Assembly: GCF_932526225.1 (NCBI RefSeq)
Contig: NC_064047.1
Coordinates: 1,689,027-1,753,026 of the forward strand
Direction: 5' to 3'
Origin: Nematostella vectensis
Taxonomy: Eukaryota
Length of the DNA: 64,000 nucleotides
Shown: positions 38,851 through 61,760 of the stretch, one piece after another
Layout of the letters: each line of letters begins with the position of its first letter
Numbering within the stretch: the stretch's first letter is position 1
Notes under the pieces: model-generated
Seen by the model: the letters and a program-made list of their open reading frames with translations, nothing else
Told to the model about the DNA's origin: nothing
Databases searched by the model: none
Made by a program: the position numbers and the translations under genes

Positions 38851-39492
38851 GTAACTTACCTCTAAACGCAACCAATGTTAAGAAAACCACCCATTTCGTG
38901 GATAGCTTTATCTTAGAAACATATACAGTAATGATGGAAAATTCGCGCCCGGAAAATTCGCGAACACTGAAAATTCGCAGTCAGGTCATTTACTGTACTA
39001 TGTAATCATACCTTTTTCGAACAAATAGACTTAATAAGTTAGCCAAACGAAAGAGGGAATTTGTTTGAAAACTTGCAACTATGCAGCTGAAGAGAAAAAA
39101 GGAATACCCCTCCCTCTCCCTCAAAATGATTTATTTATAAATATCACACATCTCCTATGTTACTGCACAGGTAGTCCAGGCTCAAGGCGAGTGTAGGTTT
39201 ATTACAGAGTTTGTATGAGCAAACAAATCTCGTTGAAATAAATATGCTGATTTGAAAATAAAACAGTAGCTTGACGTTGCTGCTACTCAAACCCGCCATT
39301 ATTATACGCTCATACAAACTCTTTACGCTCCTACAAACTCTGTAATAAACCTAGACTCGCCGTGAGCCTGGGCTACCTGTGGTTACTGTTGCTGATTTTC
39401 AATTTCCTAAAGTTCGTTAGAAATAGCACACCCTCTCGCCCCAGTCTCCTGGGACTTGAAAAGTTGTGAGTTGCTTACATTTTTTCTCATAG

Positions 39493-40673
39493 GGCATCTT
39501 ACCTGGCAACTATACTACCAAGCGAGATACAAAGTAGACACAGGGGTATCCAAGGGAAGGCCAGGTCTTGACTACACCTGCAAGACCTTGAGAGGACATC
39601 CTAGCAAAATTAATGATGTTGTTTATGTTACAAGTAACAGCATATATGATGAAGGAATCATAGACAAAGCTGCTCATCCTGTAGTTGCTAGTTGTGACCT
39701 GGATGGGATGGTTTGCCTGTGGAATCCTCACAATGGAAAGCAGCTCTGGAAAAATGCTGAGCAACACAACTCTTCCATCTTATGCCTTGCAGCTGTCAAG
39801 CCAAATGGCAGTTTTGCCAGTGGGGATTCCAATGGTAATGTTGTCCTGTGGGAAATTGAGTCTGGAGAGAGTAACAAGCTACCAGAGTCACATAACAGTC
39901 CAATTGTTGCAATGGTGTGTGGTGAAGCCAGGAAAAGCAGTGAAGAAAAAAAGCTCTTCTTTGTTGGAGCTCGCAATGGGGAGGTCAAACTTTTGGATGT
40001 TCATGACTCTTTCAAGTTGCACACTACTCTTGAGTGCCCTGTCGATGTCCTCGACTCGTTGCTTTTGTACGCAAGTCACCGGCTGGTTGTCTCTGGTCAT
40101 CGTTTTGACTCACCTTCAAATGTTAGAGTGTATGATATTAGGCAACTTGAGAGGCATGGTAGGGAGCTTTATGTGCTGCCGTCCCCTCCCGATGCTTCCT
40201 GTACATGCTTCTGTGCTGCCCCAAGCCAAAGCAACTTTCTTGCAGTTGGGTACAGTGATGGGAATGTCAAGCTGTGGGACACATCAAATGGGCGGGAGGT
40301 TCACAACTTCTCTGCTCACATGGGCTCCGTGACAGGTCTAACTGCTGTTGGGAATACCTTGGTGAGCATTGGTCAGGATTTGAAGACTTGTGTGTGGTCA
40401 GTCTCTCGGTTAGAACTTTTAACTTCCTACTTGGACCACAATAGTGAGATAACTAGTGTTTATGGTGATGCATTCAAGGTTGTGACATGCTCTAGAGATT
40501 ACTCTATCCGAGTGTACGGGTGGGGGGAAGCAAGAGCACTTGACAGCAAATACACCCTGTTAGGCGGATCATTACAAAGAGCTGGGCAGGGTTTTGACAA
40601 GGTCATTTGCGACTACACTACCTGCATAGGAATGGCAAATAATGTTCTGAAGGCCTACTCATTCCAGGCCTAA
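39493..40673 (+). CDS. FBXW9: F-box/WD40 protein exon 2 (WD40 repeats; stop TAA 40671-40673)
   Basis: Acceptor tttctcatag|gg. Long ORF 39456..40673 with multiple WD-like motifs (VASCDLDGMVCLWN, FASGDSNGNVVLWE, LAVGYSDGNVKLWD). Confidence 0.8.
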
Positions 40674-42933
40674 TATGTACCATAGAGGCATCCCAAGGGG
40701 GGGGGGAGGGAGAGGGACATTACTCAAGGTACTTGATTATTAGATCAGCAATGAACGCCTTGTATTGTTTAATACGTGGTTCAACCTTAACCCATTGACT
40801 CCTGGCTTTTTTGGAGCTGAATTTACAAAAAACAGACTGAAAACAGATACCTCCCCCCCTATTCTGTGTTTTATACAGCCCGTCAAAGTCAAACACAGCT
40901 GCACCTAGTCAGCGGTATCCAAGCTTTCCAACAGTGCTTTGCGGTCCCCACTTTTAATCCCTCGTCGATGTGCTGAAGCCAGCACAAGTTGATGGTTGCT
41001 TGTATTTTTCATCAAAAATACAGCTATGAGCATATTAGGAGAGTGTCTCAGGACATCATGAAGTCTTTTGGGGCATAATTGAGTGCTTTGCTTATGGATA
41101 TTTGCAAGCAAAGGTGGATTCATGATGATTTTTTCTTGTTTGGCTTTGCCCGGATGAGAAAATAATTTTCTAATGAATCACCACAGCTCTCCTAAATGCT
41201 GTCTTTTCTGAAACCAAATTGATTCCAAAATTGTTTACACTGCTATTCCAGTGTTGACTGGCCCTCCCCTCGTGAATTTTCCCATGGATCTCCCAGAATG
41301 CTTTGCAATACGTAAACATATTTTCGTGGTTGTACAATCCTTCAAGGAATGGACATTGTGTTTTGAGGCCAAGGAAATGTACCTGGAGGATCAGAATAAA
41401 GGTATCTATTTGTGTCTTGAGCTGTGTTTGCTGATCTCTCTCCCTTGTGTGGTATTTTGAGCGTTTTATTGAGAGGGGTGATTCTGCTTTTCTCTCCTTG
41501 TTCGATTTGAGATTTGTCAAAGAACCTGTGCTATTATTTGGCTTAAGAGTAGATGCCAACACCTTGGTTGGATGCATATCTGCAAGACCATTTATCCCTT
41601 AGACTGATGCCTGAGTATCTTCATCTTGTTGTGTTTATTTTGAATTTATGAATTTTTTGGGTTGTGGGTACTTCCCAAAGCCGGTACAGGCCGGTTGAGG
41701 GGTCAATGTGTTAAGGTTGATCCACTTCTTAGTTGGTGAAGTTTTACAACTTTGACATCGATGTATGTCTACGAAATGTTTGTAAGATTTCGTGAGGTGT
41801 AAATTGTAATAAGCATTATCAACAGAACTATCTTGGCTCAAGTGGACACATCTACTGGAATCATAAATAATTATGTAGCATTAGTAGATAATGTAATTAT
41901 TGAATAACGCTAAATAAAGTTTTCACATTTTAAGGATTGAGTTCAATCCTGGCTTACGGTAGCACAAGTGGCTCTAGCTTGGGATTTTCCGGGTTCATGA
42001 GTGCCTTGACTTGGATTTCTATAAAAAGTGAGTTGAAGTTATTTCTCACTGTGTTTCCCAGTCTTCTCGTATTGCGAGATTTTGCTTTTCAAAACTGGGA
42101 TATTTATAGTTATAAAATAAAACTTTGTTGTGGTGATATTTTTGTCCTTTGGTGCAGGCCACATGACCCATACGACAGCTTACACTGCTAGCTGATCCGG
42201 GTCCTCCCTTAGGGTTCGCCCCCTACTCAAAAGCCGTAAATTTCGTCCCGTAAATACCAAGAAACGCACCTACTAGCAAACTAAGGCTATGGGACTAGAA
42301 GGTATCAATTCCAAGCTGTTATAGCCAATGAGATCCAGTAGTTGCATTGTTCGCCAAATCGGTCTATGATCGTCAGATTAAGTCCATTATAATCCCTGTA
42401 ATAAGAGCTGACTAGACGTATAACCTACGGCAGGCCAGGTGCGCTCAGTCGTTTAGTTTTTAGTGCGGTCTGTTTAACGAGTACGTAAAGTAGAAAATAT
42501 AAACCAGTGCTTCGCGCCGCGTTAGTCGCTTCGAAATGGCGTTAAATGTAAAAAAAAAACATACTTTATAATCGCCAAAGTTTGATTACTCGCAGCATTT
42601 TCGTTATCCAATAAAGGTTTAACTATTTTTTGTCCATAAAAGGATAGCCGTTTTTGAATTCTACTATTTCTGTCTTTCGCCCGGAGCTGTTTTTCGTATC
42701 TCGTGCAATACTACTTATTCGAGTCAGACGAGCTTCGTAATTGATGACACTTCGCCCTTCTGCCTCCACCAATAGACAATGCCCGACTATGTAAGATAAA
42801 ACCTATGATTGCTGCACCCAAATTACGACCTCGCGAGCCTAGCATTTTCCTCTGCATTGCTCCGTTTAGAACAGGCTGTTCTCTCGTACTTAGCCCTCGC
42901 CTTTCTCACTCTCTTCGTTTCACTTGCTCCAAC

Positions 42934-42984
42934 ATGGCAAACAAACCAAGGGGATACGGCTTCAGTGCAGAAGCAGCTAAAAAG
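42934..42984 (+). CDS. Transgelin/calponin-like gene, alternative first coding exon 1a (MANKPRGYGFSAEAAKK)
   Basis: ATG plus 51 nt, then donor aaaag|gttggt, phase 0. Matches transgelin N-terminus MANKGPSYGMSREVQSK. Confidence 0.7.
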
Positions 42985-43827
42985 GTTGGTCCTTGTTTTA
43001 TCTCATATTATGTTTTGCACGCGGCGCAAAATGCCAGCGCTTATATCAGTTTGATTTATGTTGGAATGATTTAAAACCGCCTTAGAAATTTCATTTAAAA
43101 TCGAATATGAAAGCTTCTTGGAAGCAAACTTGCCTACTCTTTCTTTAGGGATTATATTGTTCTGTGCTGAAAATTTTGAAACTGCACATTTTATTGGCCA
43201 TCTTTTTTATTTTTTTATTGTATTACCTAGGTAATTATGGTAAGGCGATTTCGATTATCAAAATAATTTAGATTAGTTAAGTTGAAAAGCATTTTGTCGG
43301 CTTTCCTCTTTTTTATATTTTATTTTTTACACGGACATTGCTGCGTCTCGTCACATATCCCGAAGGTCATTGAATAATGGACCCCCACGGATAAGCCATC
43401 GGTCCAACTATATTTACGACCGCGATTACAGCTTGCCATATTACCTTTTAGTAGATCATTATTTTTTTCCTATAAAAAAAAAAACCTCTAGAGTTTATTA
43501 AAATAAAATATGATGCGCAGTGATTTTCAAACAACAATTTATTTCTTTAAAAAAACTGTAAAAGGTGGCGTTTCAATGCCGCAACAACAGCTTGCCTGAT
43601 CCGACAGGCCATCGCATTGCCGGAAATTCTCGGGTTTTTTTCCGGGTTTCACCCGATCATAAAAAAATGTAATCATTATACTCGGGATTTCGTCGTGATT
43701 CGGAATCTGACAGGAACAGGTGTTCGCGCGCACGGCGACTTATTCGGGATTTCACGGCATTTTCACGAAACTGAAAACTAAAACACGCTTCTCATTTACT
43801 TTATCTCGTGCGAAAACACGCTTAAGA

Positions 43828-43878
43828 ATGGCAAACAGAGGAAATGTATTTGGATTTGACATAGAGATACAAGCAAAG
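43828..43878 (+). CDS. Transgelin/calponin-like gene, alternative first coding exon 1b (MANRGNVFGFDIEIQAK)
   Basis: A second ATG plus 51-nt exon with donor caaag|gtagga, phase 0. Paralogous to 1a and lies 894 bp downstream. Confidence 0.6.
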
Positions 43879-45564
43879 GTAGGATGGAAAAAAAGGAGGT
43901 TGTATTTTGAGTGAATCGATGAGTTCAGTTTCCAACATGTTCCGTTCATTGAAAACACTGAACAACACTCTATATTTCAAACCCTAAGAATGCCATGTGT
44001 TTGCGGAAAACTATCCAGTATTTCACCCACATTTTAACTTCTCTTAGCCATTATATCGACAAAGTGAATTTTTTGGACGCATTGAATTTATCATAGTTCG
44101 TTATAATCTCATTTTAAAATGTCCTGGCCTTATTTAATCCAGAATCATATTTTTTAATTATAAAAGTGGACCTCGAATACAATTTTTAGAAATATCCCTC
44201 CCGCTCTCACATCTTCCAAATTCTTTCTTTATATTGAAGATATATAATTGATTACCCATTCGAGTAGAATATCGTTTTTTGATGGAAAGCATGCGCGAGT
44301 TCTAAATAAATCATCATGTTCGGTTACAGTATGTAATGGAACTTTGAATGGATGTAAAGGCAGCGCGGTCTCGGAAGCCACGCGTGCGCTATTTCTGAGT
44401 GCTATTGTGGCTTTTAGAGAAGTGAAATCACGTTTAGAATGAGGTCAATTGACATTTCCGCAGGCCTGTCACTTGTACAGAGGTTTTGCATTTCCCATCA
44501 TTTCAAAAAAATGTAATGGTAAAAGTAAAAGGCAAAAGGGGGAAAATATGTTTGAGACAGGTTTCGTGTCGCTATTTTTCGTTATGCGTTTTTCGCATAT
44601 GTTATTAAAAAAAAAATAAAAAGTTTGGCTATCAAACAAATCAATCAATATTCTCCTTGTCCTTATATCAATGCAATATGCCGCATCTCCTCATAAAACG
44701 CTAACTTGTTTATTTTCCTTTTTAAAGAATTTCTTGTCGACCACTTGTACATGTATGTCATTGTTTATATTTGAAAATATAACGATTTACTCGCAAAAGT
44801 ACTTACAATTCCACAATTGATGAAGCCTGATAGTAGGTCCTTTCGCAATCAAGAGGGCCATCAGATTAAGGTTGAACATTCGTCAAACACAACAATCGGA
44901 CTTCTTGAAACGAACATTTTCCAGTTTTCGCAACGTAATTTGACTGGGTCTCGCAGTAATAACGGAGAGAGCGTTACAAAACAAGGCATATTTTAATTAA
45001 TTAGTGAGTTTTAATGGCATTTTGTGCTTCTATTATCTCCTTAGAATTTAGCCTGACAAGCCTGTACCAGTTGCCCTCGGGCAAGCGAGTGGTCGTTCAC
45101 AGTAAACGCAAATTCCTAGGTCGAATGTCATTTTTTCTGGGGTGACCAAGCTTTGAGGGTATTTTGAGAGGTCACGCACCTTTATGCTTGCTATGAGAAA
45201 ACTCTCAGAATGCCTACCATATTTCCATGAGGGGCAGGGCACGTGCACCAGACAGCCCTCCCTACAAAAAAACTAAAGTGGAAGGCTAAAATACATGTGT
45301 ATGATATAGCCCATCATTTTGATATAATGAGCCAATCAGAGCGCGCGAGAATCTGTATTTAAGCTCGATATTAATTTTTACCTCTATTTATGCGCGTATG
45401 TACCAGGCGCTCCCCCCGCCCCCCGACATCTTTGTGGCCAAAAAGTGGGTCATTTCTTATTATTGAAATTTTAAATACTATGATTTTTCCGTATAATACC
45501 TATAACTGCGAACCTTTGTAATGGGCGAGAACAATTTATCACTGAAAAATACCTGACTTATTTT

Positions 45565-46533
45565 CATCTCAGATCTAGCAAAGCTCTTATCCAAGTAAGG
45601 ATGATGGGAATATGTGATAAAATGAATAAATTCTCATCTCAGATCTAGCAAAGCTCTTATCCAAGGAGGATGGAATAAGTGATAAAATGAATAAATTCTC
45701 ATCTCAAATCTAGCAAAGCTCTTATCCAAGGAGGATGGAATAAGTGATGATAAAATGAATACATTCTCATCTCAAATCTAGCAAAGCTCTTATCCAAGGA
45801 GGATGGGAATAAGTGATAAAATGAATAAATTCTCATCTCAAATCTAGCAAAGCTCTTATCCAAGGAGGATGGGAATAAGTGATGATAAAATGAATAAATT
45901 CTCATCTCAAATCTAGCAAAGCTCTTATCCAAGGAGGATGGAATAAGTGATGATAAAATGAATACATTCTCATCTCAAATCTAGCAAAGCTCTTATCCAA
46001 GTAAGGATGATGGGAATAAGTGATAAAATGAATAAATTCTCATCTCAAATCTAGCAAAGCTCTTATCCAAGGAGGATGGGAATAAGTGATGATAAAATGA
46101 ATAAATTCTTATCTCAAATGTAGCAAAGCTCTTATCCAAGGAGGATGGGAATAAGTGATGATAAAATGAATAAATTCTCATCTCAAATCTAGCAAAGCTC
46201 TTATCCAAGTAAGGATGATGGGAATAAGTGATAAAATGAATAAATTCTCATCTCAGATCTAGCAAAGCTCTTATCCAAGGAGGATGGGAATAAGTGATGA
46301 TAAAATGAATAAATTCTTATCTCAAATGTAGCAAAGCTCTTATCCAAGGAGGATGGGAATAAGTGATGATAAAATGAATAAATTCTCATCTCAAATCTAG
46401 CAAAGCTCTTATCCAAGTAAGGATGATGGGAATAAGTGATAAAATGAATAAATTCTCATCTCAGATCTAGCAAAGCTCTTATCCAAGTAAGGATGATGGG
46501 GATAAGTTATAAATGAATGAATTCTCATTTCAG
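45565..46533. repeat. Minisatellite of about 70-75 bp, about 13 copies, immediately upstream of transgelin exon 2. It is derived from the intron 3' end plus exon 2 start, and units carry ttctcatctcag| pseudo-acceptors and ccaa|gtaagg pseudo-donors.
   Basis: Unit attctcatctca(g/a)atctagcaaagctcttatccaag(taag)gatgatgggaataagtgat(gat)aaaatgaataa. The last degenerate unit ends in the real acceptor ctcatttcag|ATCGATTCAAAG. Confidence 0.85.
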
Positions 46534-46673
46534 ATCGATTCAAAGTATGACCCCACGAAAGAAGAAGAGGCGCGTAAGTGGATCGACACGGTCCTGGGGG
46601 AGTCGATATTTGGCGAGAATGGCGGTGTAGACACGGTGCATCAGACGCTCAAAGACGGCCAGGTCCTGTGCAG
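46534..46673 (+). CDS. Transgelin-like exon 2 (CH domain start: IDSKYDPTKEEEARKWIDTVLGE...HQTLKDGQVLCR)
   Basis: Acceptor ctcatttcag|atc, donor tgcag|gtgggc, phase 0 in and phase 2 out. ORF track 46513..46731. Matches KYDEELEERLVEWI...LKNGVIL. Confidence 0.85.
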
Positions 46674-46840
46674 GTGGGCCGTACAGCCAAATTCGTTGTT
46701 GCGTGACCTCGGCGAATTCGTTGTTGCGTGACCTCGGCGAATTCGAACTCCTTGTCTCGTTTGGGAATAGCGCGTAGTCAAACAACCGTCTAAACTAATC
46801 GATGGGGTTATAAGCAATTTGACTGCACACAGTTAGAGAA

Positions 46841-46950
46841 TTGATTGGTCACAGTGGTATGATTGGTCACGTGGTATGATTGGTCACGTGGTATGATTGG
46901 TCACGTGGTATGATTGGTCACGTGGTATGATTGGTCACGTGGTATGATTG
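46841..46950. promoter_or_regulatory. Tandem array of 6 copies of GATTGGTCACGTGGTAT (inverted CCAAT box next to a CACGTG E-box), bracketed by a 17-bp inverted repeat, in transgelin intron 2
   Basis: 17-bp periodic copies. The flanks gggaatagcgcgtagtc (46766-46782) and gactacgcgctattccc (46951-46967) are reverse complements. Confidence 0.5.
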
Positions 46951-47476
46951 ACTACGCGCTATTCCCAGACGAGAAATGGATTAAGAATTTCTCGCGAGAA
47001 TTTTCTTGATAGGTTGAATAAGCGCTGGGGCGCTAATTCATTTTATTTTTCGCGAGGCGATTATTTTTTTAGAATTAATTCTATCTCTTGATAAAAGATG
47101 CTTTTTGCATAAGGTAGGGAGTAAGCAATTTCCCAGTACCATATCGAAACAACATTTTAATGATAAAATGTTGGGGCGGATAGTAAGGCATCCTCTGGTA
47201 CCCAGGGCGTCGCGGAGATCGGGCACACAGGGCGCGCGCCAGAAAGAAAGAGCACCGCTTCCTGTGTGCCCGATCTCCGCGACGCCCTGGGTCCCCGAGG
47301 ATGGTAGTAAGGTCAGTTATATTGTTACTTTCCTTCTAGCGTTCAGTCAGCCTCTCGTCATCGACATCTATTGAGTGCACACGTTAAAGCAAGGCGCTTA
47401 TTCGGCGAGGCGTTAAATTTTAAGGGAGGCGCTTTTTCGATTAATGACAACTTATAGAGTGTTTCTCTGCTTTTAG

Positions 47477-47537
47477 GCTAGCTAACCGTTTGGGCGGTAA
47501 TTTGAAGATTAATCAGCAGAAGATGCCCTTTAAACAG
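47477..47537 (+). CDS. Transgelin-like exon 3 (LANRLGGNLKINQQKMPFKQ)
   Basis: Acceptor gcttttag|g, donor aaacag|gtgacg, 1+60 nt. The paralog exon 61761-61821 has the same 61-nt structure. Confidence 0.75.
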
Positions 47538-47877
47538 GTGACGCATGCAGCAAAGTTACACAACAAACCGAAACTAATTGAAACGTATAAATAGTCAACA
47601 GTATACTGCAAGTTGCTACACGTCACAAAGACATTAACCTTTTCTTCTTTGCTATGTGTTTAGAATTCTGGAGCTACAGAAATACTTTGCTGTGTAGTAT
47701 GTTTTCTTTTATTAGCAATATAACGTAGAATAGAGAGCTAAAGAGCTATATGACTCGATAGTGATTCGTGCCGCGTCACATATCAGTGTATTTAACGTAT
47801 ATCTAAATACCTCGTCTATCTAAACTTTATACATTAATTTCGCAACGCCATTTTTGTTGTTGTAATTGATTTTACAG

Positions 47878-47985
47878 ATGGAAAATATTGGCAACTTTCT
47901 GTCATTCATTGAGAATAAGTTAGGCGTGGCTAAAAATGACCTGTTCCAGACGGTAGATCTCTACGAGAAGTCTAATATGTGGAAC
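47878..47985 (+). CDS. Transgelin-like exon 4 (CH domain: MENIGNFLSFIENKLGVAKNDLFQTVDLYEKSNMWN)
   Basis: Acceptor attttacag|atg, donor ggaac|gtaagt. Matches transgelin [33 protein letters not shown]. Confidence 0.85.
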
Positions 47986-48480
47986 GTAAGTATCCCCCCC
48001 TTCCCTTCGTATTTACTTATCCATTTACCACGCCACTTTCCTCCAGCATAATGATCACACAGAGTTTGCTCACATTCTGGCCAATTTAAGATGCATTAGC
48101 TAGGAGCAAAAAATAGCAAAGTTCAAATTGTAAGGTACGTTAGCTTATATTTGCATGATTTTTTGCATAGATGTTCCTTTTGTAATATAAAACAAAATAG
48201 CTTTAGAATTTTCTAGTAGATAATCCGTTCTTGAGATATTGCATAATGTAAGACTCTTGATTTCTCTGAAATTGCTCAATTTGGGCGAAATTGGTGCTTT
48301 TTTCAGGATCTATGACAACTTTGCTCAAATCTCAAAAACCGATCATCTACCAAAAAATAGTAAAGCTTATTTTGTTTTATTTTATGAAAGGAACCTCTAG
48401 GCAAAATATAATAAAAATGTAAGCTAACACAACCTTACAATTTAAATTTTGCCATTTTTTGCCGCTTGAGTTAACGCTAT

Positions 48481-48660
48481 TGATTTTGCACTTTCGAATT
48501 TGCGCCTGTGAGCGCTTTGGAGTTTTGAGTGTGCGCTTTCGAGTATTTGCTTTTGAGTTTGCGCTTTCGAGTATTCGCTTTTGAGTTTGCGCTTTGGAGT
48601 TTACGATTTTGAGTGTGCGCTAGAGTTTAAAATTTTGAGTTTGCGCTTTTGAGTTTCACG
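48481..48660. repeat. Minisatellite of about 20 bp (ttgagtttgcgctttcgagt-like) in transgelin intron 4
   Basis: Repeated gcgctttcgagt / gcgctttggagt units. Confidence 0.7.
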
Positions 48661-48684
48661 AGGTTCTGTTTGTTGTTCTTCTAG

Positions 48685-48717
48685 GTCATTTGCTGTATTC
48701 ATGCTGTTGGACGAAGG
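48685..48717 (+). CDS. Transgelin-like exon 5 (VICCIHAVGRR)
   Basis: Acceptor cttctag|gtc, donor gaagg|gtaaga, 33 nt. The paralog has a 33-nt counterpart (VINGIHALGRK). Confidence 0.75.
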
Positions 48718-49183
48718 GTAAGAAAAAATAACCAGGAAAAGTATCACTAATACACTCACACTCGCACTGAAATTAAACTAGACTCACATAGAACGTACGT
48801 ACTACACTCACACTCATATAGAACTTGGAAAATATGCTTAAAAACCTATCATTTTTTAGGCCTTTGAAATATACTATCTTAAATACTACTCGCTAGACGT
48901 ATTCTAGCAAAAGTTAAAGCACATTTTCAGATGTATACGTAGGCAGCATTTCGTCATTGAAAGCTGCTTAAATTTTCCACATAACGTTTTTTCAGACGTT
49001 CTAAAAAAGAACACTCTCCTCTATTTCTCCTAATACTTGCTCTTTTTCTTGCTTTCTTTCCTTGAAGGTCGTCTCTGAGCTACCCTTTAGGTTCCCAGTT
49101 ACTCATGATAATTTTTTGTTAATCTTCTCTTCTTTCTCTTAGCCTAACATCTCCTCTTTATTCTCTAACTCATCCATACGCAG

Positions 49184-49384
49184 GCTTACTCTCTGGGAAA
49201 GGACGTCCCTCAACTTGGGCCCAAAGAATCGACAAAAAATCCTCGTCAATTCACAGAAAGACAACTCAACGAGGGAAAAACGATAATAAACAGCTTCCAA
49301 ATGGGACCGGCGGCCAAAAATGTTGCTACTGCGTCCGGCCAGAGTTTCGGTCGTCAACGACAGATAATCAATGATAACAAATAA
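49184..49384 (+). CDS. Transgelin-like terminal exon 6a (calponin-like repeat; ...PRQFTERQLNEGKTIINSFQMGPAAKNVATASGQSFGRQRQIINDNK*)
   Basis: Acceptor ccatacgcag|gct. Matches transgelin C-terminus [40 protein letters not shown]. Stop TAA 49382-49384. Confidence 0.8.
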   Translation, partial: AYSLGKDVPQLGPKESTKNPRQFTERQLNEGKTIINSFQMGPAAKNVATASGQSFGRQRQIINDNK

Positions 49385-51105
49385 ATAGTCCATACAATAA
49401 CTATTCCTTAATATTTAATTAAAATGTTTCGTGATGACATACTGAGGAGAAGAAACCCAGGCCATTCCCTTAAAGTGGACTTTCAATTTTATCGACTTGG
49501 ACCCAAGAAAGTCTTGACTACGAGTCGAATTCTTAATCAGACTTTCTTCGAGATTTCCTTACGAAAATCTATTTACGACTCGGCCAGTGCCGTAGCTCAG
49601 TAGGCCTGTATACTGTACGCTTGTGGATATTTGCCCGCGTATGCAGTCAAAACATCTACCTAATAAAAAACTTTATCTAAATTGAGAGTACATATAAAAA
49701 AATATATATTAACAATCATTATCCATAGTATGATATTCATAAATACTTATTTTTTCTTGTTAAGATGATATATGAAATTAAACTAAATCATTCCTTGATC
49801 CGGATTGCTGTTTCGTACTATATTTGTATTTTATTAATACTGTAAATCTAGATATATTATATCACCTGAGGTTATTAGGGGACCCCCAGATACTTCTGGC
49901 GAGAGAGGGCCGCGCACGTCACGTCTTTTTTCTGTGTTTGCGAGTCAAGCAATTTCTTTTGAAAAATTGTACATCATATTTGGAAATAGCACAAGGACAT
50001 TGTTTGAGAAATATTAGCTTGCGCAGTAATGCACATGTGATTAAGGATCCAGTGCTTTCCGTCTTCTGCAGCGAAAATCAAACAGATCTCCGTGATAAGA
50101 GAAGACACAAAGTACGCTGGCACTCCGAGCATGGCGTGCTACAAGGCAAACGTTTCCCTGACAATGTTAACCGTGCCAATGAATGGTAAACACAATCAAA
50201 GGCTCTGTGAGCCAACTCGTGATTGCTTATTTATTAATTTATTATTAGTTATTTTCTTGTGTGCATAAAAGATATACATGATACTGAACAAAGAATGAAC
50301 ACATTCAAGATGCTGAGAGTACATAGAAATGTCCTTATACCTTTTTCCTTTTCGATGTCATGACACGCCAAGAACAGTAAAATAAAATACTATTATTATA
50401 AAAAATAAAATAAAAAATAAAAAAAATAAAAAAATGAGAGGTGCGTGATCACCTCTCTCTAACCGCCAAAATGTGGAAAGACCATCAAATATTATCTTTG
50501 TTTTCATATGATACCTTTGACTGCGCGCCCCCCTCGGTATATCGTGGGTTCGCTGAGAATCCCGGATGACGCTCCTCAATGATAAATGAGTCACGCCTTC
50601 TTGATCACATCAGGCACCTAATGTCACGCTTACCGCCACGTCAGGGATAATACGCGCCTGAGAATTCCGGATGATGCTCCTCAATAATACATATGTCACG
50701 CCTTCAAAATCACGTCAGGCACTATGTCAGGCCCTCTTAATCACGCCTGGGGTATGTCACTCCTTCATCACGTCACATCTTCATCGCGTTGCCAAAAGAT
50801 GCCCGTATACATTTTTTATGGCGCACGGGCGTCAAAAGGCCTGAGTTGTATTTAATTAACCTCACAACGAAGCATTATGTCACGCCATCGCCATTATCCT
50901 GCGTTACAGCGGGATGACACTCTATTTGATCCGTCCCATGTTACATTCATGGTGTCCTACATCGTATAGGATCAGCGAGACAAATGTTTGGCTCGCCGCG
51001 TGTCTTCATCGCCTGCCAAAAAGGCCCTCCATTCGTATCCATCTCACGTCGAGCACTCGTTCAAATGCTGTAAAGCCCCTTTAAATGCTTTATTTATTTT
51101 CTCAG

Positions 51106-51219
51106 GCTGTGGCCAAAGGCCTGAACGTGCCTCTCTTGGGCCCTAAGGAGGCGGAAGCAAACCCGCGTGACTTCACAGAGGAGCAGCTCAAGGGAGGGGC
51201 GGGGATACATTTCGCGTAG
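51106..51219 (+). pseudogene. Truncated duplicate of the transgelin terminal exon (6b: AVAKGLNVPLLGPKEAEANPRDFTEEQLKGGAGIHFA*), followed by a minisatellite
   Basis: Acceptor ttttctcag|gct is intact. The calponin repeat is missing and replaced by the 23-bp tandem array at 51241-51400. Confidence 0.5.
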
Positions 51220-51240
51220 GACCCCTGACGATATTTGCAT

Positions 51241-51400
51241 AGGTCACGTGACGATATTTGCATAGGTCACGTGACGATATTTGCATAGGTCACGTGACGA
51301 TATTTGCATAGGTCACGTGACGATATTTGCATAGGTCACGTGACGATATTTGCATAGGTCACGTGACGATATTTGCATAGGTCACGTGACGATACTTGCA
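51241..51400. promoter_or_regulatory. Tandem array of 7 copies of AGGTCACGTGACGATATTTGCAT, a palindromic E-box (GTCACGTGAC) plus an octamer (ATTTGCAT) composite
   Basis: 23-bp perfect tandem copies immediately after the truncated terminal-exon copy 6b. Confidence 0.5.
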
Positions 51401-52539
51401 TGTAGTTGATTTTATGGTAGATTTGTTTCTCGCTAAACCCCAATGTTTCGTTTTTTGAAGTTAGTCAAAGGCGTCTAATAAAAACCGGCATGATAACACA
51501 GTCCCGATCAGATACATGACTGTATAGATTACTTGGAAAAAGTGGTATTGGCAAAAAACGTTTTACAACAAATTTAGACAGAACTCACACGATCAAACTA
51601 AAGACTTTGCAAATCACTTATTAGAGACCTTACGCAAGGACGACAGCGACGGTCTCGAGAAAAGGTCATTCCAAAACGATCGTTGACGTTCGTGACGGCG
51701 CGCGTAGAAATTGAAAATAGGAACATGCCGTTATAAGGGGCGTCCACACTAACACGGATTCGTTGGGATCTGTATACTTTTTGATACCAGGCCTTCCGTC
51801 CACACTAACACGCGCGCTGGATCCAGCAAATCCGGAAAGTGAATCAAAATGAATCCGTGTACTTTGGTCCATAGTGATGACGACCCCGCCGTTTTTTAGC
51901 AATTCGCGAGCGCGCGCGCCGTACTTGATGCCGTCGCCCTAATCCTTGCGTAAGGCCCCTACCTCCAAGACGCTAGTATATCATCGTGTAGGAAGAAGTT
52001 TATTAAAAAAACGGAGCATGTGAACATTAGGTGTTTTCTTCTGTAAGGGGGCGGTTGCATCTCTTCTTACGAATCTGGACTGCTTACTATCTACCTTTCA
52101 AGGATCTATGGTCGATCTTGTTAGTAACCCAGATTATATTCTTCTTGTTTTCTTCCTTTATCATGTCTTTGATAAATACACAAGTATCCTTTATCTTAAC
52201 GCGTATAAACAGCGCCAATTCTCACGTCTAACCCGAGCTTAGTCATCTGTACTAGATCATTCTCTTGATCCTATTCTCTTGACATGTCACATCAAATACC
52301 ACGGCATTGCAAAACACGATTTATCGCATCGAAGAACTCGAGTCACACTTATCCTGACATAGGCCACGTCACATGTCTTTCAAGGCCTTCAGGCTGAATT
52401 TGGGATGGGGGGGGGGGGGGGGGTGGGGGTGGGAAAGCTCTCTTAAAACTCTAAATCCCTGCAAGTAAAAAATCCGCGTTTCCATTTAGTCGCCAAGAAC
52501 GTTTTTGTTTATAATAATAATTGTTAATATTAATGACAT

Positions 52540-52900
52540 GCGTCACAGCATCCATGTCACGCTATTGTCATATCACGTCTCATTCCATGTCATTTTTTCA
52601 TGTCACACCACACTGTCACGCGTTACAGCATTCATATTCATGTCACGCCATTATCATCTCACGTCTCATTCCATGATGCCGTGTCATAACATATTAATGT
52701 CATGCGTCACAGCACCCATGTTACGCTATTGCCATGTCACGTCCCACTCCATGCCATTTTTTCATGTCACACCACACTGTCACGCGCTACAGCATTCATG
52801 TCACGCCATTGTCATATCACGTCTCATTGCATGTCATGTCATGTTAAACCATATTGTCACGCTACACGGCATACACGTCACGCCATGTCACATTCCATAC
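52540..52900. repeat. Tandem repeat of about 115 bp, about 3 copies (catgtcacg... family), immediately upstream of exon 6c
   Basis: Repeated blocks ...catgtcacgctattgtcatatcacgtctcattccatg... The long ORF-track ORF 52505..53113 is mostly this repeat. Confidence 0.75.
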
Positions 52901-52915
52901 TATCCTCTGCTCCAG

Positions 52916-53113
52916 GCTGCTGCCAAGGGACTGGACGTCCCTGTGCTTGGCCCGAAGGAGGCAGACGCGAATCCACGCCAGTTCAGTGAAGAGCAGCTCA
53001 GAGCCGGAGAGGGAATCCTGACCAAACAGGCCGGCCCGAAAGCGGACGAGGTTGCTACGGCAACTGGTACTCACGCCGGTCGCCCAAGGCAGATAGTTGA
53101 CCGCTACAAGTAG
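52916..53113 (+). CDS. Alternative or duplicated transgelin terminal exon 6c (AAAKGLDVPVLGPKEADANPRQFSEEQLRAGEGILTKQAGPKADEVATATGTHAGRPRQIVDRYK*)
   Basis: Acceptor cctctgctccag|gct, phase 0, compatible with exon 5. Full-length calponin-repeat-like ORF ending TAG at 53113 (last 198 nt of ORF track 52505..53113). Confidence 0.6.
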   Translation, partial: AAAKGLDVPVLGPKEADANPRQFSEEQLRAGEGILTKQAGPKADEVATATGTHAGRPRQIVDRYK

Positions 53114-53399
53114 AGGGCGTGTCTTTATGGGCGTGTCTTTGTAGGCGTGTCTTTATGGGCGTGTCTTTATGGCAAAATTTTCGAAAGTCCAAAGACTTAT
53201 AGGAATAATTAGAAAGATTAAAACAATGCAGACTTCGTGTCGTGTTTTTTTTCTTATGCTGTCTGTGACTGGGGGGGGGGGGGGGGGAGACGCACCCCCC
53301 CTCCGTATTTCATGACCTTCAACCTTACAGACAAAGATCACCAGCATGCGTCACACCCTATTGTGTGTGGTCAAATCAATTATGACGTCACAATGACTT

Positions 53400-53860
53400 C
53401 ATAAATACGAGGTCTATCTGGCAATTCTTTCAAATATTGCCTAAATTATCAGATATCGGGTTGAAATCATTTTGCACCATTCATATATATCAAAATCAAC
53501 CCTTTAAAGGCTTTACAATGCAAAAAGGTCATAAAAACGTTTGTAATTATTTTTTTTGTAAGAATTTTTTCTTGGGTCCACCCCCCCTGGATCCGCCATC
53601 TTGGATTCTTATGATTTTTGCAAAAGAAAAAAAATCTGGAATTATTAAGGAAAAAAGTATTTGCATACATGTATTACTGCTTATAGTAATGATAAATGCA
53701 TAATATTAGCTTTTAAAGTGTAATCTCGTGACATTTTTAACAACAGCTTGAGCAAAATTTACCCACCCCTCCCCCAAATATCCGAGGTAAAAAAATTCTA
53801 GCGCTGATGTGAAACTTGTCACCTAAACAAACTTATAAACTCAAAAGAGGCATTTTAATC
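53400..53860. repeat. Dispersed repeat of about 500 bp. An inverted copy lies at 63130-63760.
   Basis: Shared sequence (ccaaatatccgaggtaaaaaaattctagcgctgatgtgaaacttgtcacctaaac) and similar pseudo-ORFs (MPKLSDIGLKSFCTIHIYQNQPFKGF against MPKLSDIELKSSCIIQICQNQPFYGF). Confidence 0.7.
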
Positions 53861-56800
53861 TGAGAAACAGGACCAAAACAATTTTTTTCGCCGCTGGGGG
53901 CCGAGTTACTCATTTACCAGGCGGCGTAGCTTATATAACGCGTCGTTTGAAAGGTCACAAGCGCGTAGGAACAGAGCTCGCTAGGGGAGCGAAACCAAGG
54001 CAAATACGGCCAGTTGAGGTAGGAATACGTGCTTTATTTACTAACAAGACATTAGACTTCATTTCGGAGTCAGATTATCCTATAGCCCGTAGTAACCAAT
54101 ATTATGTAGAATCCTATAGTCAAATTCTTACGCGCGCTCTCATTGGTCAAAACAAAGTGAGATTTTTTTGTGGAATTCAATAGTTGAAATTGTGGAATTT
54201 AATGAAAGCACAGGTGTGCCACGTTTTCTCTTTCCAACACGAATCATATCTTTCAAACATAAGCTGAGAACTCACAAAGATTAACAAATTGTTCTGGACA
54301 CCTTAATTTCTTATTTAGGGTATTTCAGTATGCCCTTGCTCGTCAGATATAATTTTGTACCATATTTCTTCTTGGTGTTCAAGCTACAGCGGGTGATACT
54401 CTATCGCCATCCAAATGCAGTCCGTATCCCCATAGTACTGGTGCCACCCATAGTAGTACTCCCCGTTGTCATGGATACCGCAGAAGGGCACGTGCGTCAT
54501 ACCAGGACTCATGACCACATCTTCGTACAAACTGCTAAAATCTTCACTATGGAATTTCTGCATTCGTCCTGTCCCGTATATCTGTGCAGTTAACAAAATG
54601 TAAAGATTACTTATACATATAAGGTCAATCGCGCCGCAACTTTATGCTCTTGCTCAATGCCGAGTAGTAACGCATCGGCTAAAGTCAAGCAAGAAACCAA
54701 GATATTTTCAATCCAATATCGTCATTTACTTATCATACTTCAGTCGTAGATTGTTATTTTTTAAGTTTCCTTGCGAATAAACCGTTGTATTTTTTTTATA
54801 AGCGATAGCAAAGGAGTGGTTTATTGACATTCTATAATGCATATTTGTCATCATCAGACCTGATCTCCTTCTAGCAGTGTGTAGTTTTGTTTGAATATTG
54901 GTGAATTTCTGTGTGTGTTCACAGCACGAGTTTCTCGGCCCTAAAAGTGACGTGCTGGATGTATGTGATCTTACTAGAATCTTGAGCTACTCCGGTTCAG
55001 GATGGGCCATTCTCAAAACGTAGTATTTTAAATCTCAAAGAAGTCAGCACATGGTGAATACGGTACTAAGCGCTATATAAGTTATGTTCATTAAAGTCTG
55101 TGCATTACCATTCATGTCGTGGAAATATCTAGCATGATAAAAAGACTTCTGTATAAAGTCGAAATTTATTATTAATCAAACCTGATTGCCTCATTGTGTT
55201 TTTTACTAAAATCAGCTATAGCTTTGTATGTTATGTTATGGAATACCTGTGGCGTGTTTGGGTTGCCTGTGGCTTATTCATAGATTATCATACCTGTGTG
55301 TGCACTTCCAGTATTTCAGGATCGCTATGCTTGTTGTGTAGTCGACAATGAGTGTTTGTAGGGCAGAACCAAACATTGACTTTAACCTGGTGTTCCCTCA
55401 CTTTGTTTAAGTTCACACCCTCTGACTGACCAACCGCGTGGAATGGGTCAAAGCTATCAGAAAACATGAACGAGTCTCTTAGTAACAATAAGGCAAGCAT
55501 GCTACGTGCCACCCTAAAGTACCAAACATGAACAAGTGTAGTTAGTTAGTAACAATTAGGGAAGCATTGTCCAATATAAATAGATTTAGGCGCTACCCAA
55601 AGCTACCAAACATGAATAAGTCAGCACTGATATAATAAGGCAAGATTGTCCAATAGAAATAGAAATAAATAATTAAATGCGATTGGTAATGGTTATGGTA
55701 ATGAAAATGGGATAGAAAATGTAAATGGAAATACAAATAGAGGAAGGACAAACAAACAAACAAACAAAGAAATGTGGCATTTGATTCGGCACAACAAAAG
55801 CTCGCAGTAGCGGATCTAGGGGGAGAGTTTAGGGGGGTTAAACCCCTCCCTTTGGGCTTCCAGAAAGACATAACAAAAAAAATTCCCTTTCATCCCTTTG
55901 TCACTGAGTCAAACCCCCCCTTTAGCGAAAAGCAAGATCTGCCCCCCTGGCTCGTCATTTCAATCAGAGTCGTGCTATTGCCTAGAGCACGACTGGCGCA
56001 GACGTGCTCAGTGTCGTGTCGAGCATAATTCTGGCGTGCCGAAGTTACTAGATTCAGGGATTGAACTGTTCGATTAATTAGAGTCGACAGGAAGATGCGG
56101 TAGATGCGCGACGTATGAATCGGGCCTTACAAAATTTTAATTATAGAAGTTTTGCACTTTACCTCACTTTCCCTACTTCAAATTGTGGAGATTTATAAAG
56201 CGACACATGTTTTGGAAAGGATGGGAAAAGTTCATTGAGGTGGTGCCAACCATTTTCCAAAACACACCCACTGATGTCTCGCTCATCTTCTATTTCCACA
56301 AGAACAACTGAATCAGCACTCTGTACGGTTACATCTGCAAAAATGAAGTACTGTAAATGCATGACTCAACTCCAAAAAAGCACCCTGCTTCGAATCAAGC
56401 AACGACGACGGCAACGTGGACGACGACGGCAGAAAACAATGGGGTTTGATTCAGAATTCAATAGCAGCACGTGAAAATGCGTTTTGTTCGACATTCAGCT
56501 GTTTTCCATAAAACCACGATGTGAAAACTCCACGGTCAGTTGAGGATGCGGACGTTTGCACTGTAAACTCCAGCTAGTAGTAAGTACTAAGTTCGCTGCT
56601 GTAGAAATAATGTCCTTAGGTTATTTTATCTGCGTCTGACGACATGACGGAAAAACCTGGAAAACGCGCAATTGGAGATAGAGAAAGACACAATTTCTTA
56701 CAATGGCTATAGGATCCTTGTATTACGGACTGATTTTCAAAACAAATAACGTGAGGCCGAAGTGCACATAACCAGATTTTGGCTTTTTAAGATAATTTTT

Positions 56801-58789
56801 CCTTGATCATCCTTGCGCTATGTGTGAGCACAGGGACGGAAAGCTCAAATTTCAATGACACTTTACAAAAAGTCGAATCAATTTAAAAAAAATGTGAAAT
56901 GGACTTATTTGAAGCGTAATGTCATGTTTTTCCGTCATGTCGCCATTGACTATAATGTTTTGCTTATTCCATTGCAATTAAATTATTATTGATCGCCACG
57001 TGCGAAAACATCTTTTTCGATCGCGTTGTCCTAGCCGTCGTCGTTGTCCTTGCTGAAGGCCCTTTAAAATAGAGACGGTCACTATTGTTGACATATAGAC
57101 GACAACCCCAAATAAACGACAATCTTAACTATTTAGCATATTCCGAATTTTCCCTGTCAAATGTACGCTAATTTTTTGTGAAGCTATTTTTGATAATAGT
57201 GATTAATGCAGGAATTCTCCCCTCCCCTGTGGAAGGTTCCAGGTGCAGTGATTAATGCAGGAATTCTCCCCTCCCCTGTGGAAGGTTCCAGGTGCATCCT
57301 GGATATTTTTTAAATCTAAAAAGAACCAAGACGTAAGACTCGAAAGCAAGTTGTATGTATGAGATCCTAGAACCAGTGTTGTAAACCCAGATCCTGAGCG
57401 CGCATTTGTCGTGCCATCTCTCCAAAAATACTGTATGCATCTGTCACAGCTTTCGTCTCCTTTGCAGCACGTGTTCAAGTCACGCAACGCTACCCCCTCC
57501 CCCCCCCCTTTCAAAGTCAAATGGTTGGCCCCTAAGCAGTTAACAAGATCATAACCAAAACACAAAACACCATAGTGTATCACATTCCTGGCTACTGTCA
57601 ACAAGAAATAGACACAATAGCCAGCAGTTGAACAAGCTCAAAATGGTTTATGAGCCTTTTGTTGCTGTTATTTTGTTTATGAGCAGCGTTTGTAACCAGG
57701 TCACTCTATTCTGCTATTTTGACCTCTGGTGATATTCGGCGCTTTCTTATTGGTTTACGCACGTCGTAAACTGCGAAATGGCTTCCTTCACCAAAATAGA
57801 CATTCCTAAAAAAAAGCACAAATGTGCTTGCGATTGAAGCTGTGATTGCGTGCCCATCCGCAGATACTAACCTTGCAAAATGGTGGACGTTCTTGGAGCT
57901 AGGGATTTGCACGGCTCTGTTGATTTAATCACTGTTGCTTCGATTCCGATGTTGATAAGTATCGTTCGTTTCTTTATATAGTAATCTTTGACATTTGTGA
58001 GCCAAATGGACTTGAGAAATTTCGAAAAAACTAAAGGCTTCTCACAGTTCATCATGTTGTGTAGAATGAAAAGCCCATTGTTTGTGTGTCAGTGCGTGAC
58101 ATAAATGACCACAGGTATCCCAAACTCGCTAAGTATCTATTTGCTTTAGCTGCAGTATTTCTACTCGCTTTTTTACCGTTCGGTTAATTTTTCGGCAGCT
58201 TTGTTACGGTTAACGGTTATTTTATTTTCTCAAAATTAAGTTTACGGTTAACCAACTCTCTGACCATAAAAGATGGCCTATGCAGGTGCGTGCGTGCGTT
58301 GATCAAAGAGACCTAAGGCCTGGGTCGTGCATGATGACGACATCACTACGATACTATAGCAACACACTAACTCCCAAGAGACGCAAGCGTGCAAAAGACC
58401 CCGATATTTTTTCACTTTACATCTCAGCGAGCTGTGCGTGGCGTAACCGACTAAGACAGGCCTGGGATCCTGGTTATTGCCTCCCCATTAATGCGCGGGT
58501 GCCTCAGGTTCCTTTGTGTTGTACAGCTCACTAGATAGCGGTGCTGGGGCCGTAATCTCTAGCCTAGCCGTAAAGCTTTAAGCTGCCATACGACGTTTCA
58601 GCGTACGTCTGGAAGTATGGTCTATTTTTTTTCTGATTTCGTTTGATCAGAATAGGTTCGATCTTCGGCCAATTAATTGCCTTTTTTTCCTATCACAAAA
58701 CTATACTTTTTCCATGTCAATGTTTGCAGGGCTTTTCCTTCTCGCTTTTCCGTACAAGCGAATAGCAAGGCTTTGCCGACGGTGGGCAG

Positions 58790-58915
58790 ACCGCTTTTTG
58801 GCGGCGGAGGGGGTGTGTTTTGGCGGCGGAGGGGGTGTGTTTTGGAGGCGTAGGGGGTGTGCTTTGGAGGCGGAGAGGGGTGTTTTGGAGGGGTGGGTGG
58901 TGGAGGATTGCGCAA
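58790..58915. repeat. 24-bp GC-rich tandem repeat (ttttggcggcggagggggtgtg)n, about 5 copies
   Basis: Direct tandem copies with small variations. Confidence 0.8.
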
Positions 58916-59852
58916 GCTGCCTGTTGCCTGGACGCGGCGCAAACGGACCATCCAAAAAATTCACGTGATCAGAATGACTTCATTCACTCTCCTCGGGAGA
59001 GGAGAGTGAATGAGGACAGTCAATAACATCCTCCCGACCAGCCTACGTTGCGCATCACGTGAGTTGAATGACGCTATCATCATTCATCATTGCGCGCACC
59101 CTGCCATGGGCATTAGAGGCACCGAGCTTCGCGGCGAAAACGATTTAAGCGAAGCGCTTTCGCTCAAATCGTTGTCGGAGCTTCTGTTACCCAGGGTACG
59201 CGCAACCAGTAAAACACCTTAAATATGTGCGGAATGTTTATTGTCTTCTAACGAATCAGACGCGACAATCCAGACACAAAATTTGTTAAAACATGTTTCA
59301 AGGTGACAGTTTGAATATCTCGCGAGTGATTGGTCGAAACAAACACTTCCGTTTTACTGGTCGCGCTGTAAAATACGCTCGGTTTCCGGCTCGTTTCTAT
59401 GAGCCCGCTGTACGTGCCCCCATCCTAACTGTAAAATAACAACAGCAATAAGCAACTATTTCGCGACCCTTTGTCAAAAGAGGTTATTTTCTGGCGCAGT
59501 CATTTCAGTGTTTATTGTAGCTTAACTTTGTCACTTAAAGTCACGTGATCAGTTGTGCAAGTTGCCTACTGGTTGAGCGTTCATTGAAGTTTATCTAAAA
59601 AACGTTCAAGTGAAAGAATGCAATCAAGATATCTCTCAAAAGTTTTATTTGTAATAAGTACAAAGACGATTCTAAATCCACTCCTAATGTCTCAAAACAA
59701 CGATTTTTCATCAGTTTAACAGTTTAAATCAAATAATAATCAAACATTTTTATGCATACCTATGCATTCAAGCCTAAGCCCGTTAAATTGCATTATTTTT
59801 CACTAGAATTATGAATATCAGAAAAGAAGGGATTTTCTGTAAATGAAAGCAG

Positions 59853-60080
<228 letters not shown>

Positions 60081-60602
60081 TCAAAGAGTCGCGTTTTATC
60101 CATGCGCGTGTGGGAGGGGGGAGGGAGGGGTAGAGGGATTCGGACCCCACCCTGCTCATGTGACAAGCTGAGTTTGACTCCGGTCTAACAACTTCGTTGG
60201 AAGACGGTTAATTCTAAGGGTGTATTTCTATAGAAAAATTTTCTAGATGGACCTATTACCAGAGCTAAGGGTGTCTATTTGATCTTACTTGATCCGTGGT
60301 CAGTAAGATCGAACTACTCATACTTCTAATCCCCACCCTGCGTTTTTCTCTAGACACGCCTCTGTTATTTCCGTTGAACTATAGTCTAGGTTTGAGTGGT
60401 CCAATCTAGCAATGCGGGGCAATCAAAGTTTACAAAATGTTTTCCGTTAAAATTCCAAATTTGATTGACGGAAGTGAGAAACGCCTTCTAGCACAGTAGT
60501 TGGCGAGAGTTTTCAGAATACTCAAATGTAAAATAAAATAAAGTAAAAACAAAATTGGTTCGCCTCATTTGTGTTCGAGGTGAGCCATCTTGTGAATCTC
60601 AC

Positions 60603-60635
60603 CTTTCTTCCAAGAGCATGGATTCCATTAATGAC
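60603..60635 (-). CDS. Transgelin-like paralog exon 5' (VINGIHALGRK)
   Basis: Minus-strand tcttgcag|gtc ... agaaag|gtgaga, 33 nt. Confidence 0.7.
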
Positions 60636-61452
60636 CTGCAAGATAACAAAAACATATTAATCATCTACGCAAACAAATCAAACTCTATATCGAACAAAAT
60701 ATATATCTTTCCATTCTGTAGGCATCCAGCGCTTTCTCGTTCGGGCACGCGACGATCGAGAGAACTCTCTGGGACCGCGGGCAAAGGCTGCTGGGTCTTC
60801 GAGCATGTCTCTTAATGGTTCGTGCTTCAGGCGCGTACACAGGGGGTTGCGCAGGGTGCGCGCGGCTTAAGCCTGGTTCCCACGCCATTATTGTAATCAT
60901 GAGAAGTGAAGGGTGCAAATGCGCACTAGCAACAAAACGCCTGCAGGTGCTCTGAACAGCGGGATTGCTACAAAATGGCGCACGTTTACTGATCGAATTG
61001 TTCGCATCCTCACGTTTACGACTATGATTTTACCATTCACACGTATGGTATATATATATCTGTGTATGTGCACCGAAAACGGTACATCACACCAATAATT
61101 ATCAGATCTTTTTACCTCTGAAAAATGTGTAGCAGAAAGGAAAAGAAAGTTTGGATAAAAATGCAGCCTTTTAAGGGGCCTAAAGGAACGTAAGGAGCAT
61201 AAAGGATACTAACAGAAGATGGAATAAATCTTCTAATTCGCATCTATTTTGTCATCCTCGAGAACCAAGGGCGTAAAGGAGACCCCCTCCCCTCCACCGG
61301 ACTTGTTCCGCCTCGTTCTCGTGCCTCGTTTACCTTTCTACCATCCCAGAGCGTTGCGTGACCGACTGCTGCGCGGGAGACCGACTGGCTGCGCGGGAGA
61401 CAAGAACAAGGACTGCGCTTCAAAAACCGTAAAAAAAAATTGATTATCTTAC

Positions 61453-61557
61453 CCCAGGCATGTTCTGTTTCTCGTAGAGATCCACTGTCTGGAACATGTC
61501 GGTTTTAGGAACACCAATCGTGTCACAGAATTCCAGGAATTTTCCAGTATTCTCCAT
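61453..61557 (-). CDS. Transgelin-like paralog exon 4' (MENTGKFLEFCDTIGVPKTDMFQTVDLYEKQNMPG)
   Basis: Minus-strand gttcacag|atg ... cctggg|gtaaga. ORF track 61444..61758. Confidence 0.8.
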
Positions 61558-61760
61558 CTGTGAACAACAAGTCAAAAGGCAGTCAAAGTCCCCCCCCAAA
61601 AAAAAACTAAAACACATCGTTCGACTGTTAAATATCTGCATATTCTGGTGTTTAGTGATCAAAATGGTAAAAATGTGAGAAAGAGAAAATACGGCCCCTT
61701 TGCCTTCGATACCCACTAAAGTAGATCTGAAGAATATATTGTATCGCGATGGTTGCATAC

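Follow-up and report, generated by a model that had tools for sequence, protein, structure and literature searches.

Alternative first and last exons of a transgelin-family gene in Nematostella vectensis

Do two first exons and three terminal exons of the transgelin/calponin kind, grouped on one strand of Nematostella vectensis DNA, belong to one gene or to several, and how did such a set of exons come about? The locus lies in a stretch of 64,000 nucleotides (nt) of assembly GCF_932526225.1 (contig NC_064047.1, positions 1,689,027 to 1,753,026 of the forward strand), called the window below, to which all positions refer unless another locus is named. It holds the gene 'muscle-specific protein 20', which encodes a small actin-associated protein and has two alternative first and three alternative last exons. 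The reading that we favour, with a probability of about 0.78, is that of one N. vectensis type-A gene of the transgelin/Mp20/myophilin group, in which a core of four exons encoding the CH domain is joined to either of the two first exons and to any of the three last ones (the classes A, C, S and canonical are those of the trees described below).

Exon architecture of the locus

All nine exons are on the plus strand. The two first coding exons are 1a (42934-42984, MANKPRGYGFSAEAAKK, donor AAG/gttggt), which resembles the first exons of type-C and type-S genes, and 1b (43828-43878, MANRGNVFGFDIEIQAK, donor AAG/gtagga), which has the type-A form. They are followed by the CH-domain exons, from exon 2, where the domain starts (46534-46673), through exons 3 (47477-47537) and 4 (47878-47985) to exon 5, where it ends (48685-48717) and whose donor is common to the three terminal exons. 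The latter are 6a (49184-49384, 201 nt), a tail of type A in which the calponin-like repeat is degenerate, 6b (51106-51219, 114 nt), a short tail ending in GIHFA-stop without calponin-like repeat, and 6c (52916-53113, 198 nt), a type-C-like tail (…QAGP…GRPRQIVDRYK-stop). The positions and translations of the five end exons given in the first-pass annotation proved exact.

All donors are GT, all acceptors are AG preceded by a pyrimidine tract, and the phases are compatible throughout; inspection of the splice sites thus also confirmed the GT donors of both first exons and the intact phase-0 acceptors of the terminal exons, which had been pointed out earlier. Each first exon carries its own ATG and a donor of the same phase, and each last exon an acceptor of the same phase, a stop codon and a candidate poly(A) signal: AATAAA overlapping the stop codon of 6a (49380-49385), AATAAA downstream of 6b (51477-51482) and ATTAAA downstream of 6c (53217-53222). 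The six combinations of first and last exons are all open to the stop codon, with products of 197, 196 or 168 amino acids (aa), each containing the CH domain. Stop codons are present in frame upstream of exon 1b. Upstream of 1a, the reading frame stays open back to another in-frame ATG, 132 nt before the start codon (42802-42933); homology favours the annotated start. A description of the copies as tandem, mutually exclusive internal exons was rejected, the alternatives being first or last exons, and the last exons being 201, 114 and 198 nt long.

In a homologue search, the closest proteins to the products of the window came from N. vectensis itself, and an exact-sequence look-up identified four of the six combinations as RefSeq isoforms: X1 (XP_032219403.2) is 1a+6a, X2 (XP_001638721.3) is 1a+6c, X3 (XP_032219405.2, 168 aa) is 1a+6b, and X4 (XP_032219404.2) is 1b+6a. 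Exon 1a is thus used in three of the four isoforms; an older partial model, EDO46658.1, corresponds to 1a+6c. The proposal that alternative first and last exons are combined within one gene is therefore upheld by four exact matches. We conclude that the architecture is real, correctly placed and of an ordinary kind, and that it is already present in RefSeq, so that the basic observation adds nothing to the annotation. Nothing specific to this gene was found in the literature on the gene, on the family in Nematostella or on the accession numbers.

The duplicated exons might instead be parts of distinct genes arranged in tandem, each provided with CH exons upstream, an outcome named in the first-pass annotation as one that would refute it. 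Clustering of transgelin paralogues does occur: the minus strand of the window carries another complete paralogue (62315-59856), and in Actinia three to four genes of the family are carried by one contig. However, a permissive tblastn search (word size 2, E≤100) and a CH profile of the family, applied to the six-frame translation, revealed a single set of CH exons on the plus strand between 40000 and 59500, all other matches to the profile in the six-frame translation of this interval remaining below 4 bits. A profile of the tails, run on the plus strand of the same interval, retrieved exactly 6a, 6b and 6c (98, 56.5 and 100 bits, respectively), with the next match below 5 bits. Moreover, 6b and 6c lack a start codon of their own and are open from their phase-0 acceptors onwards. 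Since the plus strand of this interval contains only the CH exons of the core, the duplicated exons do not represent separate tandem genes, an explanation to which we leave next to no chance.

The minus-strand paralogue at 59856-62315 is the canonical N. vectensis transgelin (P0008, 195 aa), and its orientation is convergent with that of the 'muscle-specific protein 20' gene. No first exon was identified for it within the window.

Predicted products and their tails

Membership of the transgelin/calponin family, proposed in the first-pass annotation, is confirmed at the level of the CH domain, which matches Pfam PF00307 with 66.7 bits (E 2.4e-18, cut-off 26) and whose best matches among solved structures are the CH domains of calponin 1, calponin 2 and transgelin-2. 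The search yielded 212 homologues at E≤1e-3. Those named by their source are transgelin, myophilin, calponin or muscle-specific protein 20, and they match the product over its full length, with 41-79% identity and 82-100% coverage.

The C-terminal tails are a different matter. Both outer tails had been described as complete calponin-repeat-like sequences, which the Pfam search did not confirm: with PF00402, the calponin repeat, 6a reached 10.6 bits (E 0.47), below the cut-off of 21.1, and neither 6b nor 6c gave any match, compared with 45.6 bits for the repeat of the canonical paralogue P0008. The 6a and 6c tails nevertheless align collinearly with the calponin repeat. They are, as judged from the alignments, diverged, positional homologues of it and not recognisable repeats, and only 6a has kept a weak trace of it.

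In an AlphaFold2 model (mean pLDDT 80.7), the CH fold is predicted with a pLDDT above 90. The model comprises an N-terminal helix (residues 10-20), the CH domain (24-134) and, after an extended segment, a tail helix (156-170); residues 167-197, where the repeat would be, are of low confidence and likely disordered. The 17 residues encoded by exon 1 would form, in this model, the first half of the predicted N-terminal helix beside the CH domain.

How the products might be generated can be proposed from the exon arrangement. Transcription would start either upstream of 1a or upstream of 1b, presumably from separate promoters, and the exon-5 donor (48717) would be joined to 6a, 6b or 6c. The choice of the last exon probably depends on a competition between cleavage and polyadenylation after a proximal exon and splicing to a more distal acceptor. 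The resulting proteins would differ in their first 17 residues and in their C-terminal tail, which would be of type A with a degenerate repeat (6a), limited to the LGPKE..NPR.FTEEQL segment without the repeat (6b), or of type C, with a different repeat-derived sequence (6c). The C-terminal region of transgelins and calponins contributes to F-actin binding. The tail being the region that varies, the isoforms would be expected, by analogy, to differ in their interaction with actin.

Age of the terminal exons and structure of exon 6b

The three terminal exons were reported from the outset to be homologous, and their similarity is indeed well above chance, both with the tail profile and in tblastn comparisons within the window (6a/6c, 52% identity, E 4e-15; 6b/6c, 71%, E 3e-12; 6a/6b, 54%, E 1.5e-6). 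The consensus then given for their beginning, A..KGL.VP.LGPKE..ANPR, holds for 6b and 6c and fits only loosely for 6a (AYSLGKDVPQLGPKESTKNPR).

Three homologous exons in a row, and a repeat that directly follows 6b, could be explained if the terminal exon had been duplicated locally and recently within the Nematostella lineage and 6b then shortened through insertion of a minisatellite. Divergence estimates by the Nei-Gojobori method speak against such a history. Between 6a, 6b and 6c, the proportion of synonymous differences (pS) was 0.72-0.76; when the tails of the paralogous genes were included, synonymous sites were saturated in all pairs (pS 0.64-1.0), and the proportion of non-synonymous differences (pN) was 0.13-0.34. 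In blastn comparisons including the flanks, DNA similarity was limited to coding sequence and ended at the exon edges (88 bp at 75% for 6b/6c, 33 bp for 6a/6c). None of the terminal exons contains a frameshift or a premature stop, and between the window and an older N. vectensis assembly, 6c differs by two synonymous changes and one non-synonymous change. Given the saturated synonymous sites, the low pN and the arrest of similarity at the exon edges, the alternative exons are ancient, and all copies have remained coding under purifying selection. These estimates and the comparison of the flanks rule out a recent duplication as well as gene conversion. In addition, 6a groups with the type-A tail of Actinia rather than with 6b or 6c.

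The case of 6b bears on the same question, as the first-pass annotation had seen in it a copy truncated by the minisatellite. It is correct that a repeat adjoins the exon: a minisatellite with a 23-bp unit (51226-51401, 7.7 copies according to Tandem Repeats Finder, TRF) occupies its 3′ untranslated region. Truncation, on the other hand, is ruled out by four observations. First, the repeat begins only 7 nt past the TAG of 6b. Second, the last exon of a 167-aa N. vectensis paralogue, XP_001636136.1, is also 114 nt long and ends in GIHFA plus stop, with the stop codon at the same position. Identity between these exons is 61% at the DNA level and 73% at the protein level, and their six final codons (GGG ATA CAT TTC GCG TAG in 6b, GGT ATC CAC TTT GCT TAA in the paralogue) differ at third positions alone, the mark of prolonged purifying selection on exactly this ending. 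Third, the copy number of the minisatellite is polymorphic, with 7 exact units in the window versus 3 in the older assembly (L006), and the reading frame is unaffected, 6b being identical in both at 114 of 114 nt. Fourth, a profile search of the six-frame translation of 40000-59500 found no remnant of repeat-coding sequence downstream of the minisatellite. Actinia and Exaiptasia have proteins of the same 167-aa architecture, ending in …AIHMP-stop. From these comparisons, the short tail of 6b is best regarded as an ancestral, conserved type and not as a truncated copy. With its stop codon shared with an old paralogue, and with the repeat confined to untranslated sequence, little is left of the scenario of a recent duplication followed by shortening, which we consider very improbable. 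More generally, a simple local tandem duplication of exons, as first suggested, is too simple an account of the data, since synonymous sites are saturated and since 6b, 6c and 1a group with other paralogue classes instead of with 6a and 1b.

Two other repeat arrays were noticed. The intron that precedes exon 2 contains a minisatellite of 69-bp units (45560-46536, plus strand), all derived from the junction between this intron and exon 2. The units begin with ATTCTCATCTCA[A/G]ATCTAGCAAAG, to be compared with ATTCTCATTTCAG followed by ATCGATTCAAAG at the real junction; three units keep the AG and then have an in-frame TAG, and several carry a donor-like GTAAGG. Such units could function as decoys for splicing or as poison micro-exons. 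At 52527-52837, immediately before the acceptor of 6c, tandem repeats of 80/164 bp rich in 'catgtcacg' create a spurious open frame of 202 aa that runs into 6c.

Origin of the alternative ends and relation to known systems

Between the two first exons, 28 of 51 nt and about 38% of the residues are identical, which is not significant (E about 8-10). Taken individually, however, each has counterparts among the first exons of homologues from other anemones: 1a shows 76% identity with the first exon of the Actinia genes of types C and S, and 1b 65-67% identity with that of the type-A genes in Actinia and Actinostola. The N-terminus (MANKPRGYG…) resembles those of other members of the transgelin/calponin family. 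About 300 bp upstream of the 1a ATG, two CArG-like boxes (CCAATAAAGG, CCATAAAAGG; 42608-42643, plus strand) form a possible SRF-type muscle promoter element; a scan of the whole window found 12 such boxes against 7.7 expected, which is not significant, and no box upstream of 1b, so that those upstream of 1a are a lead only. A cluster of five CArG-like boxes at 3313-3805 was discarded as AT-rich repetitive DNA and is probably due to chance.

Trees of the CH core separated four classes: type A, type C (100% bootstrap), type S (98%) and canonical. The CH core of the window gene grouped with the type-A genes of Actinia and Actinostola (74% bootstrap), and 6a with the Actinia type-A tail (85%). In the tail tree, 6b and 6c fell with type-C and type-S tails, 6c lying outside the clade of true type-C tails; it is 70% identical to the type-C tail of Actinia. 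Gene order is in agreement with the assignment to type A. The type-A gene is immediately followed, in the window (54384-58065), in Actinia (L001 13946-15239) and in Actinostola (L004 14290-15614), by a conserved neighbour gene of about 237 aa on the minus strand, with no Pfam match on record. We consider the type-A loci orthologous because this minus-strand neighbour follows the tail in the three genera. Upstream, the type-A gene is preceded in Actinia and Actinostola by an MFI_C gene, which has no significant match in the window. An open reading frame (ORF) of 405 aa, WD-repeat-like by eye and different from MFI_C, is found upstream of the studied gene (39456-40673, plus strand).

In N. vectensis, the type-C (196 aa) and type-S (167 aa) genes are in tandem on the same strand of a different scaffold (L003 1-3772 and 10001-13704; DS469548.1 of the older assembly), whereas the pair is head-to-head in Actinia and Exaiptasia.

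Another explanation would be that 1a, 6b and 6c are orphaned relics of decayed type-C and type-S neighbours that are spliced as noise, the real product being 1b, the core and 6a. The type-A genes of Actinia and Actinostola, with one 1b-like first exon, one 6a-like tail and nothing else before the conserved neighbour, are what such an explanation would predict; 1a, 6b and 6c do resemble type-C/type-S exons and not type-A ones, and synteny upstream of 1a differs, with MFI_C in the other two anemones and the large ORF in the window. Yet synonymous sites are saturated while the frames are intact, the 6b stop codon is ancestral, and pN relative to functional paralogues is 0.13-0.28; neutral relics of such an age would not keep open frames, which counts against this explanation. 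Furthermore, no relics of CH exons remain, 6b is identical between haplotypes, and most of the RefSeq isoforms use 1a. We therefore judge it unlikely that these exons are mere debris.

Exons 1a, 6b and 6c would stem either from an ancestral gene that already had several alternative exons, and be retained from it, or from neighbouring paralogues, since lost, from which they were captured. Retention would make the Nematostella type-A gene the ancestral state: the alternative first exons and the three tails would predate the whole-gene duplications that led to types A, C and S, each daughter gene would have kept one tail, and Actinia and Actinostola would have pruned theirs to 1b+6a. We advance this scenario tentatively, and doubt it more than we believe it. 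No exon like 1a, 6b or 6c was found within roughly 10 kb on either side of the Actinia and Actinostola type-A genes. Alternatively, in a mirror image of that scenario, the type-A gene may have captured orphaned end exons of neighbouring paralogues.

Several points weigh against the interpretation as a single type-A gene making all these isoforms. RefSeq isoforms X1 to X4 are computed models, and the combinations 1b+6b and 1b+6c had no exact match in the protein collection. The AATAAA at 51477, after 6b, reads AATACA in the older assembly, which makes this poly(A) signal uncertain. The trees were built by neighbour-joining with a custom bootstrap on 37-130 columns, and their support is moderate; in them, the N. 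vectensis type-C gene is represented by partial exons from locus L003, the full protein not having been among the homologues found with the Actinia type-C protein. Finally, as 6a is below the PF00402 threshold and 6c has no match, the actin-binding role of these tails is an extrapolation.

As to its meaning, calponin-family paralogues are reported to be divided in Nematostella between fast and slow muscle types (PMC10060217; preprint 10.1101/2020.07.19.210658). The supplement of that study (PMC10060217) lists MP20-like and MYPH-like genes, whose identifiers could not be mapped to this locus. The choice of isoform could be a further layer of muscle-type specialisation. By exon choice, the single type-A locus offers three C-terminal types (diverged repeat, no repeat, type C) that are also encoded by three separate anemone genes; the correspondence of its alternative exons with the separate type-C and type-S paralogues is the sole part of the present observations that has some novelty. 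The locus could be used as a modest model of how alternative exons and duplicated genes replace one another, and if the ancestral-state scenario were true, it would represent a still extant intermediate stage on the way from splice isoforms to paralogous genes.

Compared with the family formed by transgelin (SM22), calponin, Drosophila Mp20 and Echinococcus myophilin, the products have the usual size of about 190-200 aa, a single N-terminal CH domain, the LGPKE..NPR.FTEEQL linker, and a tail collinear with the calponin-like repeat of canonical members. They depart from it in the repeat itself, which is degenerate in 6a, unrecognisable in 6c and absent in 6b, and in that the C-terminal variants are alternative last exons of one gene. 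The other type-A genes, the Actinia tenebrosa 'muscle-specific protein 20-like' gene (P0003) and its Actinostola orthologue, have a CH core 70% identical to that of the window gene, ends that match 1b and 6a, and the same downstream neighbour, but only one first and one last exon each. Isoform X3 (1a+6b) is built like the products of type-S genes (N. vectensis 'myophilin' XP_001636136.1 and its Actinia and Exaiptasia orthologues), which also consist of a CH domain and a short tail free of the repeat; with the Nematostella gene, it shares in addition the length of the terminal exon and the GIHFA-stop ending. Type-S proteins, however, come from genes of their own, and their CH cores form a separate clade (98% bootstrap).

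Alternative first exons have a parallel in the type-C gene of Exaiptasia diaphana ('muscle-specific protein 20', X1/X2), where two alternative first exons of 17 codons are 881 bp apart, versus 894 bp here. In that gene the two exons are 82% identical to each other, both are 1a-like, and there is a single last exon. This points to an independent and younger duplication of the Exaiptasia pair, so that duplication of the first exon recurs in the family.

It is known from other systems that alternative exons of one lineage may correspond to separate paralogous genes in another. The present locus resembles such interchanges between splicing and gene duplication in that it offers tail types for which separate genes of types A, C and S exist as well. 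It differs from them in that N. vectensis keeps separate type-C and type-S genes as well, so that alternative exons and gene duplicates coexist in the same genome instead of forming a clean either/or.

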